A DNA stretch of 64,000 nucleotides, from assembly GCF_045037415.1 (NCBI RefSeq), contig NZ_CP173438.1; one strand, 5' to 3'. This stretch comes from Escherichia coli (GTDB lineage: Bacteria > Pseudomonadota > Gammaproteobacteria > Enterobacterales > Enterobacteriaceae). Both the position numbers and the translations under genes were made by a program. Within the stretch, counting starts at the first letter, position 1. Every line of letters begins with the position of its first letter. The notes under the pieces are model-generated. The model worked only from the letters and a program-made list of their open reading frames with translations. It was not told the origin of the DNA and did no database searches. Positions 21,979 to 23,741 of this stretch are shown one piece after another.

Positions 21979-22596
21979 TTATCCTTCGATAAAAGCCATC
22001 CCTGTGAACGTTCGTCGCGGGTTGCCACGTTCAATCTGGTGATGGAACATTCGCCGCTGCGATTTCAGCGCCGCGCTATTTTCCTGTTGCTGTTGTTCCA
22101 GCTTCCAGGCAATCAGTAATCGCGCCAGCCGTTTGTTAGCATGCTGACTGCGCTCTGACTGAACCTTCACGCTAATACCGGATGCCAGATGCGTGGCGCG
22201 TACCGCCGAGTCGGTTTTATTGACATGTTGACCGCCCGGCCCCGACGAACGCAGCGTCTCATAACGGATTGCATCCGATTGTTCCTGCTCATCAGCGGTA
22301 AAACGCCCAATGCCCAGAAACCAGTTTTTGCGCCCATGATGAGGCCGATACGGACTCGGACAAATCCACTGAATAGTGCCGCACCAGCTTTCGCTTAGAG
22401 CCCATGCGTTATCGCCATCCAGAGAAATCAGCGCCGAACGCAGTGTGTCAGAGTAGCGACCCGTTTCTGTTTCCAGCACCGTTACCGCGACGTCCTGTCG
22501 GGTAGCTTCTTTAATCAGCCTGTCCAGTGCTTTTTTCACTGCGAGACAACATTCTTCCGGCCCCTGAGCAGAGGAGAGTTGTAGCAAGATCATCCT
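21979..22596 (-). CDS. prfH: Peptide chain release factor homologue PrfH
   Basis: Release-factor GGQ motif ([11 protein letters not shown]); start taken at MILLQLSS; overlaps the upstream rtcB-like gene. Confidence 0.8.
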
Positions 22597-23741
22597 TTTT
22601 TCCCTCCACTGTTTTTGAGCGTCAGCACCGGGCGCAGTCGCGCGACAGGAATAATTAACCCAGCCAGCACCAGACATTGCACCACGCTTTCAGCCGATTT
22701 ATAGGCTTGTGGCGCTTCTTCAAAGATGAGTTGTTTATCGCGACAAATTACCCGACTGCCAAGTTCAGTCCGCGAGAGTTGCGTCGCCGTGTATTTCGCT
22801 GCCAGACGCCCTTTACACTCGGTGCGCCCCCATTTACGCCCCGCCCCATGCGCCAGCGAGTGGAGCGTTTTTTCGTTCGCAACAGGTTTAACCAGCCAGG
22901 AGTAATCGCCGCGTGAACCGGGAATAATCACCAGACCGTTGTCATCCGGCGTGGCGCCTTTACGATGCAACCAGCCCTGTTGATCGCCGATTTGGCACGC
23001 GCTAACAAAGTTATGCGCCACATCCAGAACCGGACTTCCGGTGGCCTTAACTTGTTGCATTATGCGCAAAGCGATCAGCTGGCGATTAATACGCGCAAAC
23101 GCCAGCGCATCGTCATGTTCCGCAATATACCGTAGCGCGTCGTCACTGCCTTCAGGCAAACCATGATGCGAAAACGAGGCAATATGCCGCTGTAAAATAG
23201 ACTGCCCCAATCCCCTCGAGCCGCTATGAACCAGTAGTTGCAGATGCTGCGCATCCAGACCAGCCCGTGCAAACAGTTCCGCGTCGATAATTTGATCAAT
23301 CTGTTGCAGTTCTGCGAAGTGGTTACCGCCACCGATGGAGCCAAGCGAGTTGTGCCACGGATGCTGTGCAAATGCTGACGGCAGGTTTTCCTCCAGCCAG
23401 CTTTCTTCAGCAACGTCATCCAGATCTGATAATCGCTTTTCAAACTTATCGGCGTTGTATTTGCGAGCGAGAATATCTGTTTGCCATAGCGCCATGCCGC
23501 AGCCGATATCATTGCCGACCAGTGCCGGGTAAAAACGACCAACAGAGAAGAACGCTGCGCCAATCGGGTAGCCGCGTCCGGGATGTAAATCTGGCATCCC
23601 CACAACGCGCTGCATGTTGGGTAAATTTGCCGTGGTGTGTAATTGTTGGATCGCTAAACTCTCGATCCACAGGTCATCAGATGCGATGGTAAATACCGCA
23701 TCGGATAAGGGACGAATATATTTGCCCATGTACCATTCCAT
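22590..23741 (-). CDS. RtcB-family RNA ligase paralogue coupled to prfH
   Basis: 383-aa ORF immediately upstream of prfH with overlapping stop/start; RtcB family assigned from the remembered prfH-rtcB pairing, not from motifs read here. Confidence 0.75.

Follow-up and report, generated by a model that had tools for sequence, protein, structure and literature searches.

An intact rtcB2-prfH operon in Escherichia coli, very probably the known ribosome-repair system, and a conserved leader that may regulate it

The window analysed here is a stretch of 64,000 nucleotides (nt) of Escherichia coli DNA (RefSeq assembly GCF_045037415.1, contig NZ_CP173438.1), which carries on its minus strand, between pepD on one side and yafP on the other, the gene pair rtcB2-prfH. 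The first gene encodes an RNA ligase of the RtcB family and the second a homologue of the peptide chain release factors, and the two are preceded by a leader that contains a short open reading frame (sORF). The pair is very probably an intact copy of an operon whose products are known to reverse damage to the decoding centre of the ribosome. The features of the two genes are as follows.

21979..22593, minus strand: prfH, peptide chain release factor H, 204 codons and TAA (stop at 21979-21981); RefSeq WP_000602123.1 at the same coordinates.
22228..22236, minus strand: GGQ codons GGC GGT CAA, residues 120-122 in the translation, the catalytic loop for peptidyl-tRNA hydrolysis.
22590..22593, minus strand: ATGA stop/start overlap of rtcB2 and prfH, with the prfH ATG at 22593-22591 and the rtcB2 TGA at 22592-22590, preceded by GGAGGG.
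22590..23729, minus strand: rtcB2, PrfH-coupled RNA ligase, 379 amino acids (aa); RefSeq WP_000521559.1; families NF007153, TIGR03073 and PF01139.
22848..22850, minus strand: codon of His294, the predicted nucleophile that accepts guanosine monophosphate (GMP), in the motif AHGAGRK (residues 293-299).
22496..23522, unstranded: 1,027 bp absent from K-12, from the pairwise alignment with MG1655.

Both genes are full length and lie on the minus strand where the initial annotation had placed an intact prfH-rtcB pair. Compared end to end with the equivalog hidden Markov models (HMMs), neither gene has a frameshift, an internal stop or a truncation, and the DNA from 21900 to 23900 is 100% identical to annotated, non-pseudogene coding sequences in E. 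coli SK1144 and others. The proposal of a release-factor homologue with a GGQ motif is borne out by the position of that motif at residues 120-122, by the match of residues 2-201 to positions 1-200 of the 200-position equivalog model TIGR03072 (329 bits, cut-off 166.65) and by a match to PF00472 at 1.1e-24 in the Pfam domain search. With 204 aa, PrfH has release-factor domains 2-4 only and lacks domain 1 of release factors 1 and 2 (RF1 and RF2); its alignment with the 353-position RF2 model runs from position 142 to 316, and its scores fall far under the RF1 and RF2 cut-offs. The accepted start is the ATG at 22593 (MILLQLSS...). A start at 22677, which gives the longest open reading frame (ORF; 232 aa), is contradicted by the coordinates of the family model, by RefSeq and by the protein in the Protein Data Bank (PDB), which like the accepted product starts with MILLQ.

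That PDB protein is chain 8 of entry 7SA4, the PrfH of E. coli ATCC 25922 bound to a damaged ribosome, and it aligns with the window protein from residues 1-204 to 1-204 with 203 of 204 residues identical, the sole difference being the conservative substitution K20R. All of the residues named in the structural work are found in the window PrfH at their published positions. They are R83, H86, R88 and R189, which form the pocket for the 3'-phosphorylated A1493; K89 and N90 of the h18/S12 patch, together with H85, which contacts C1054; and R52, S53, R181 and H184 of the C1914 pocket, along with G120-G121-Q122. The protein terminates at residue 204 (...AFIEG) and lacks the basic C-terminal tail of the PrfH-CT type, whose members have a total length of 225-250 aa. 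By these features, the window PrfH is a member of the short class, predicted to act on damaged ribosomes only, and not a PrfH-CT.

The upstream gene had been described as RtcB-like, and the domain searches agree with this description. RtcB2 matches NF007153 ('RNA ligase RtcB family protein', an equivalog) at 642 bits (cut-off 407) over model positions 1-378 of 379, TIGR03073 ('release_rtcB') at 618 bits (cut-off 272), and PF01139 at 6.5e-74 (250 bits). The metal- and GMP-binding residues D74, C77, N136, H137, H168, H239 and H294 are all present in canonical motifs, and the active-site motifs align with those of the Pyrococcus horikoshii and Thermus thermophilus RtcB proteins (PDB 4DWR, 2EPG), AHGAGRK with CHGAGR of the former. 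The corresponding ligands in the P. horikoshii enzyme we take to be D95, C98, N202, H203, H234, H329 and H404. No RtcB2 chain was found in the PDB. Of the span 21979-23741 that had been given for the pair, the prfH end holds, whereas 23741 marks the end of the longest open ORF; a start there is contradicted by the HMM coordinates, the alignment to NF007153 beginning at residue 5 of the long ORF, and by RefSeq, and the likely rtcB2 start is the ATG at 23729.

The two genes overlap by 4 nt, and not by 7 nt as first annotated, which would need a prfH start at 22596, where the codon is AGG. The overlap is -4 in all Escherichia, Klebsiella, Citrobacter and Ralstonia loci examined and -1 in Proteus, and prfH is linked to rtcB2 in every locus examined. 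Translational coupling of the pair was proposed by Baranov et al. (2006), and judged by the ATGA junction rtcB2 and prfH are coupled in this manner.

The function of the pair has been known since 2022. Peptide release by EcPrfH, the protein of ATCC 25922, was seen on 70S ribosomes only once their 16S rRNA had been severed between A1493 and G1494, and not on intact ones; it made no difference whether mRNA occupied the A site (Tian et al. 2022, PMC9304027). In a cryo-electron microscopy structure at 2.55 Å, EcPrfH sits in the A site without touching the mRNA and holds the 3'-phosphorylated A1493 by R83, H86, R88 and R189, with further contacts to h18/S12 via K89 and N90, to C1054 via H85, and to C1914 via R52, S53, R181 and H184 (PMC9304027). 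The partner EcRtcB2 re-ligates cut 30S subunits and repairs less than 2% of tRNAs cleaved by colicin E5 or colicin D, whereas RtcB1 does the opposite; rescue in vivo requires Q122 of PrfH and H294 of RtcB2, as Q122N and Q122E abolish the effect of PrfH and H294N is an inactivating mutant of RtcB2 (PMC9304027). Knockout of the chromosomal operon in ATCC 25922 leads to loss of colicin E3 resistance, and the operon gives no help against the tRNA-targeting colicins E5 and D (Maviza et al. 2022, PMC9223846). More recent work showed that RtcB2 alone repairs 30S subunits and vacant 70S ribosomes, that PrfH speeds the repair of translating ribosomes, and that ribosomes cleaved by colicin E3 gather at start codons, their P site holding fMet-tRNA (Maviza et al. 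2026, PMC13166195).

The pair in the window is assigned to this system because of the 203/204 identity of PrfH, the presence of the named residues, and the end-to-end matches to the family models. With the ATCC 25922 operon it shares the operon structure, the chromosomal site, the ATGA coupling, the family assignment, and an RtcB2 of 379 aa with H294; it differs in K20R, and the window strain has an intact Flag-2 cluster and lacks yafNO. In the published mechanism, the sequence of events begins with colicin E3, E3-like toxins or CdiA-CT(ECL), which cut the 16S rRNA at A1493/G1494 and leave the ribosome stalled with peptidyl-tRNA in the P site. PrfH, which does not read stop codons, enters the empty A site by way of the 3'-phosphorylated A1493, and its GGQ loop hydrolyses the peptidyl-tRNA, after which the subunits can be recycled. 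RtcB2, a 3'-phosphate/5'-OH RNA ligase specific for 30S, re-seals the 16S rRNA. In this strain the two proteins would act in the same way. As an annotation, the pair was correctly flagged: the locus takes part in defence, varies among strains, and has had its biochemistry, structure and colicin E3 phenotype described in papers of 2022 to 2026. The strain should resist E3-type rRNases better than K-12, as should about half of E. coli.

K-12 had been described as holding pseudogene remnants only, and this proved correct: RefSeq lists the K-12 prfH as 'missing N-terminus' and the RtcB gene as 'missing C-terminus', and the pseudogene state was also stated by Baranov et al. (2006) and Tian et al. 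(2022, PMC9304027). In the alignment to K-12, the ykfJ/prfH pseudogenes occupy the orthologous locus between yafP and pepD with 97.6% identity over the retained parts, and they lack 1,027 bp. The deletion is flanked by imperfect 9-nt direct repeats, TGTCGGGTA (22496-22504) and TGCCGGGTA (23523-23531), and removes 933 nt from the 3' end of rtcB2 and 98 nt from the 5' end of prfH, so that 69 rtcB2 codons are kept and the first 33 prfH codons are gone. K-12 also carries yafNO between dinB and yafP. A 2-kb query that spans the pair is covered to 80% or more in 2,709 of 5,426 complete E. coli genomes, and the junction left by the K-12 deletion occurs in 2,692. A few genomes carry further, larger loss alleles, which show 41% coverage in 4 pieces or 24% coverage with only the 3' end of prfH; since there are several such alleles besides the K-12 type, the locus has been lost repeatedly in E. 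coli. In this species, presence and absence of the operon form a balanced polymorphism, in which one deletion allele is old and widespread. Outside E. coli, the prfH of Intestinirhabdus alba is apparently split into ORFs of 144 aa and 61 aa, another independent decay of the operon.

Several points weigh against the assignment to the repair system. K20R separates the window PrfH from the protein that was studied, and residue 20 is absent from the listed contacts; RtcB2 was matched to the ATCC 25922 protein by its length of 379 aa and by H294, not residue by residue; and we infer from sequence that the operon is expressed and protective in this particular strain. In addition, half of E. coli, with several independent loss alleles, is without the system, which is therefore dispensable and could be weakly expressed. 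The recurrent loss in E. coli (2,692 deletions of the K-12 type and the classes with 41% and 24% coverage), the broken prfH of Intestinirhabdus, and the failure of a strict scan to return a minus-strand sigma-70 site would also suit a cryptic operon, intact in sequence yet silent or being lost, and conferring no protection. Such an outcome is improbable. Each ORF covers its family model from end to end and retains all catalytic residues, the same chromosomal operon protects ATCC 25922 at natural expression, and a promoter-like site and leader are kept across families, with a -10 box in the window (TAGTAT) that is better than that of K-12 (TGGTAT).

Other functions for the two proteins are very much less credible still. 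In view of its GGQ domain and a divergent region resembling domain 2, PrfH was proposed by Baranov et al. (2006) to be a third class-I release factor that acts at an unusual mRNA signal, with the upstream gene as an accessory. For the E. coli protein this proposal has already been refuted, as EcPrfH is inactive on intact ribosomes and makes no mRNA contact (PMC9304027), and we see next to no chance that it applies to the window protein. It is hardly conceivable either that RtcB2 serves as a general ligase for tRNA or stress RNA like RtcB1 of rtcBA, its linkage to prfH being incidental. The fold and active-site residues are indeed those of tRNA ligases, and RtcB1 shares the RtcB fold and the ligation chemistry (PF01139). 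However, the published substrate assays contradict this function, EcRtcB2 having repaired 30S but less than 2% of the cleaved tRNAs; the operon lacks protection against tRNA-targeting colicins, and prfH is linked to rtcB2 in every locus examined. RtcB1 differs further in its identity of about 28% to RtcB2, the latter being shorter (379 aa), and in its tRNA (not 30S) substrates, its cyclase partner RtcA and its regulation by sigma-54/RtcR (PMC9304027).

The published repair system can likewise be set apart from other means of rescue. PrfH-CT, represented by CgPrfH of Capnocytophaga gingivalis (Tian et al. 2026 Sci Adv; PDB 9MOR/9MQ4), has the same rRNA-recognition and GGQ domains, to which residues 3-201 of the window PrfH align at E = 2.5e-40; CgPrfH, however, has 231 aa, of which only residues 5-205 align, and its basic C-terminal tail also permits rescue of intact non-stop ribosomes (Tian et al. 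2026). ArfB, ArfA-RF2 and tmRNA-SmpB also release or resolve stalled ribosomes, and ArfB shares the RF-1 GGQ domain (a weak NF006718 match to PrfH). The cue for these systems is an intact ribosome whose mRNA channel is empty, that for PrfH the cleaved end of 16S rRNA, and in vivo they are unable to stand in for PrfH (PMC9304027).

Upstream of rtcB2, the sequence between 23730 and 23911 on the minus strand forms the leader of the operon, which has the following parts, all on the minus strand.

23883..23911: promoter-like site TTGCAA-N17-TAGTAT, with 8/12 consensus matches, starting 8 nt past the yafP stop and recognised via cross-genus conservation.
23848-23858: segment 1 with the Shine-Dalgarno (SD) sequence, CTGCAAGGAGG.
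23794..23841: leader sORF, encoding MTNPLSMTLCRPFQD, 15 codons and TAA; SD AAGGAGG at 23848-23854, then 6 nt, then ATG; 64 nt from the sORF stop to the rtcB2 ATG.
23808-23819: segment 2, CTCTTTGCAGAC.
23799-23803 and 23775-23779: arms CCAGG and CCTGG of an inner hairpin.
23765-23770: segment 3, GTCTGC.
23758-23765: segment 3', CCATTTCC.
23733-23739: segment 4, GGAATGG, the ribosome-binding region of rtcB2.

The comparison rests on 19 alignable leaders including that of the window, from Escherichia, Klebsiella, Citrobacter, Salmonella, Kosakonia, Cronobacter, Entomohabitans, Intestinirhabdus, UBA3516, Limnobaculum, Leminorella, Providencia, Proteus, Pseudomonas, Ralstonia, an IncC plasmid and a metagenome contig. 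A single-protein scan of genome contigs gave 8 loci, and further diversity came from look-ups of homologous proteins and from megaplasmids; a Novosphingobium locus (L018) was left out, as its RtcB start is undefinable. A motif of the form TTGNNN-N16-18-TAnnAT, or more closely TTGCNN-N16-18-TAnnAT, lies at the same place upstream in 17 of the 19 (Enterobacteriaceae, Morganellaceae, Budviciaceae, Pseudomonas, Ralstonia). A strict promoter and terminator scan of 21800-24500 returned nothing on the minus strand. There is no terminator after yafP, so read-through from dinB-yafP, an SOS operon, is possible; as the sole source of transcription it is unnecessary, as the leader and promoter accompany the operon in unrelated surroundings such as those in Limnobaculum, Pseudomonas, Providencia and the IncC plasmid. 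By eye, the intergenic sequence between yafP and rtcB2 contains no LexA-box-like CTGT-N8-ACAG. Past the -10-like hexamer, most genera have a GC-rich block (GTGCGCG here at 23876-23882, ACGCGCAC in Klebsiella and Citrobacter, CCGCCCC in Ralstonia). As pure speculation, this block might be likened to the discriminators of growth-rate-controlled promoters.

The sORF is the most constant part of the leader. All 19 alignable leaders have an SD-led ATG sORF of 13-18 codons located 60-110 nt before rtcB2 (232 nt in Intestinirhabdus, which has an insertion), and five operons with unalignable leaders, from Aureibacter (Bacteroidota), Shinella, Methylosinus and Tritonibacter (Alphaproteobacteria) and Microbulbifer, have one of 10-16 codons, 115-210 nt upstream. 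An SD-led sORF of 10-18 codons thus precedes rtcB2 in 24 of 24 operons examined across Gamma-, Beta- and Alphaproteobacteria and Bacteroidota, against 0.1-3.3% in mononucleotide shuffles of the same 200-nt upstream regions. Between genera, the first 7-10 codons cannot be aligned as amino acids, yet the frame is always open, and the distance from the ATG to the UGC is always a whole number of codons (7, 8, 9 or 10). Seventeen of the peptides end with x(L/F/I)C(R/G)xxxx-stop, and two lineages read UUUGCAGG in another frame (FAG...), yet stop 16-19 nt past the motif. Because the open frame is kept while the peptide drifts, the comparison says that selection would act on translation of the sORF and on the position of its stop, not on the peptide. 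A conserved functional micro-protein was considered and rejected: only the C-terminal xCR/G block is kept, it coincides with paired nucleotides, and the two lineages have it out of frame. The sORF on plasmid pAT2 of Aureibacter tunicatorum encodes MLVYHSNIAL followed by a stop, has a strong GGAGG SD, and precedes a perfect 10-bp hairpin. SD-led initiation is not known to be common among Bacteroidota, which makes the Aureibacter leader odd.

The leader RNA can form three helices, which were assessed on a plain MAFFT alignment of 18 contiguous leaders and on a derived representation, not contiguous sequence, in which four fixed windows found by sequence motifs were concatenated. Since the 19 leaders are related, cell counts in either overstate the number of independent events. 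Helix B pairs GCAGAC within the sORF (segment 2) with GUCUGC (segment 3) and closes a long hairpin whose 5' strand includes the end and stop codon of the sORF; it is paired in 97% of cells on the plain alignment and in 114 of 114 on the windowed one, and compensatory changes occur at three of its six pairs (A-U/G-C twice, C-G/U-A once). Helix A pairs CUGCAAGGAG (segment 1, which holds the SD of the sORF) with CUCUUUGCAG (segment 2), with 88% of cells paired versus 40-51% when the partners are slid, and barely covaries, both of its arms being near-invariant. As helices A and B share four columns, they are mutually exclusive. Helix C pairs CCAUUUCC, the anti-SD-like stretch after segment 3 (segment 3'), with GGAAUGG just upstream of the rtcB2 AUG, 79-81% paired versus 18-47% slid; one A-U/U-A swap separates Escherichia and Salmonella from several other genera, but its overall covariation is not significant (reached by 55 of 500 shuffles). 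Helix B, the inner hairpin and helix C together are 87% paired on the plain alignment versus 18-47% with partners slid, the observed pairing being reached by 0 of 500 shuffles and the covariation score by 1 of 500. A conserved U-rich run lies 8-12 nt past helix B, within the loop of helix C. An extension of helix C into segment 3 and the AUG was not retained; it is paired in about two-thirds of the sequences and its covariation is not significant.

Folding calculations gave median local stabilities of about -13 kcal/mol for helix A, -17.5 for the helix B hairpin and -8.5 for helix C. The unconstrained fold of the E. coli leader comprises helix A, the inner hairpin and the extended helix C. When a ribosome footprint on the sORF start is masked, the E. 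coli leader switches to the helix B hairpin and the unpaired probability of the rtcB2 ribosome-binding site (RBS) rises from 0.26 to 0.45; across the 19 species, masking the start codon raises RBS accessibility in 11, leaves it unchanged in 6 and lowers it in 2. Masking a ribosome at the sORF stop or in mid-ORF (at the Cys codon) leaves RBS accessibility unchanged.

With its own promoter-like site, a presumably translated 15-codon sORF and alternative helices, the leader of about 150 nt probably ties expression of the operon to the state of the ribosome. From the arrangement of its segments, we infer a four-segment translational attenuator, which may alternate between 1:2 plus 3:4 and 2:3 in the manner of ermC and cat. 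Healthy ribosomes would traverse the sORF and leave the leader in the 1:2 plus 3:4 fold, with rtcB2 expression low. Initiating ribosomes unable to decode would remain parked over the SD and start codon of the sORF. Segment 2 would thereby be free to capture segment 3, the rtcB2 RBS would loosen, and ribosomes still intact could produce the repair enzyme in larger amounts. Once PrfH and RtcB2 had removed the stalled ribosome that served as sensor, the switch would return to its first state. A signal from stalled initiation fits the report that E3-cleaved ribosomes gather on start codons. Like the attenuators of ermC, cat/cmlA, tnaC and the trp type, the leader has a short SD-led ORF with a variable peptide and a conserved frame, and it may form overlapping helices 1:2, 2:3 and 3:4, the last of which would cover the downstream RBS. 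Unlike in those systems, its segment 1 is the SD region of the sORF itself and not codons inside the ORF, and it has no evident intrinsic terminator. Attenuation by an intrinsic terminator of the trp/his type finds no support, with no minus-strand terminator-like site in 23730-23920.

The broader proposal, that the leader is an undescribed and widely conserved switch by which ribosome state is sensed, is put forward tentatively and is somewhat doubtful. RBS-sequestering helix C is without covariation support, and the thermodynamic effect of masking the start is partial and not universal, both of which count against a sensor. Alternatives are a positive coupling, in which the leader would open only if the sORF is translated; attenuation through Rho acting on the pyrimidine-rich spacer; and a structure that serves mRNA stability. 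No Rfam family on the relevant strand was found at gathering score in the whole window or at E <= 10 in 23600-24000, and the searchable rtcB2-prfH literature, with most subscription journals outside the search, contains no mention of a leader, promoter, native regulation or sORF peptide. If the sensor switch is real, it would address how a ribosome-repair operon is controlled. Authors of the published work hold that protection depends on moderate natural expression, with repair kinetics outrunning cleavage, and regulation is unaddressed in the literature that could be searched. An sORF and a switch placed before a ribosome-repair operon suggest that the cell may read ribosome damage with the ribosomes themselves.

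The upstream promoter-like site and the sORF are kept in K-12, where the sORF lies at 253239-253286 on the plus strand of NZ_LR881938.1. There, the -10-like hexamer is TGGTAT in place of TAGTAT (23883-23888 in the window), which makes the site weaker, and an enterobacterial repetitive intergenic consensus (ERIC) element of 127 nt, absent from the window, is inserted at the equivalent of 23745/23746, within the U-rich loop of helix C and shortly before the rtcB2 start. Other Escherichia lineages also have ERIC elements, full or short, at this leader site, and Klebsiella spallanzanii carries them through an independent event. Genomes of the O111 type are about 57 bp longer in the region upstream of rtcB2, which may be the same ERIC insertion. 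In Intestinirhabdus alba, the loop of the helix B hairpin is enlarged by an insertion of about 190 nt.

The order dinB-(yafP)-rtcB2-prfH-pepD is kept in Salmonella, Kosakonia, Cronobacter, Entomohabitans and Intestinirhabdus, and different genes flank the operon in Limnobaculum, Leminorella, Pseudomonas, Providencia, Proteus, Ralstonia and on the K. pneumoniae IncC plasmid. On this conjugative resistance plasmid (NZ_CP086440.1, 115126-120068), a divergent rtcB2-prfH with a PrfH of 44% identity and a leader sORF encoding MQNTSTSFAGLVR adjoins sul1, a GNAT gene and tniB. As the operon lies beside sul1 there, the ribosome-repair module also travels with resistance-gene cargo.

In the window, yafP and dinB lie upstream of rtcB2 (23919-25423) and overlap by 4 nt, and the yafN-yafO toxin-antitoxin pair is absent. 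The short interval on the other side of the operon holds one further feature.

21935..21966, unstranded: GC-rich hairpin between the convergent genes pepD and prfH; the fold of 21920-21985 on the minus strand has -25.8 kcal/mol, z = -6.7, and 0 of 200 shuffles were as stable.

On the basis of this predicted fold, the hairpin is likely to be a bidirectional terminator. Its K-12 counterpart has one extra loop base.

The window is identical to SK1144 over 13994-27280 and differs from it in the tRNA-Thr island and in an insertion sequence, IS1, in motA. Beyond dinB, a complete Flag-2 lateral flagella cluster occupies 25494-49000, with lafU, motA, a fliA-like sigma factor, lafA and flg genes, of which K-12 has remnants only. 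IS1 lies at 27281-28037 within motA/lafT (InsA and InsB frames at 27336-27611 and 27633-28022), is flanked by a 9-bp duplication, and is absent in SK1144; judged by its position, it has probably disabled the Flag-2 motor in this strain. Copies of IS1397 in the Flag-2 region are at positions unlike those in SK1144. The stretch 1-14086 holds tRNA-Thr (14011-14086) followed by an island unlike that of SK1144, which has a type I Zorya system and another restriction-modification system at this site. The island in the window contains a type I restriction-modification system (hsdR 6070-9189, hsdM 9183-10820, an hsdS-like gene 11841-12602) and an integrase fragment (3177-3953), with Rfam matches to C4 antisense RNA (13037-13125), isrK (12938-13015) and IS009 (980-1180). 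In the Flag-2 region and beyond, Rfam naRNA4, a nucleoid-associated RNA derived from repetitive extragenic palindromic (REP) elements, matches three times, at 34096-34173, 45111-45189 and 61814-61890.

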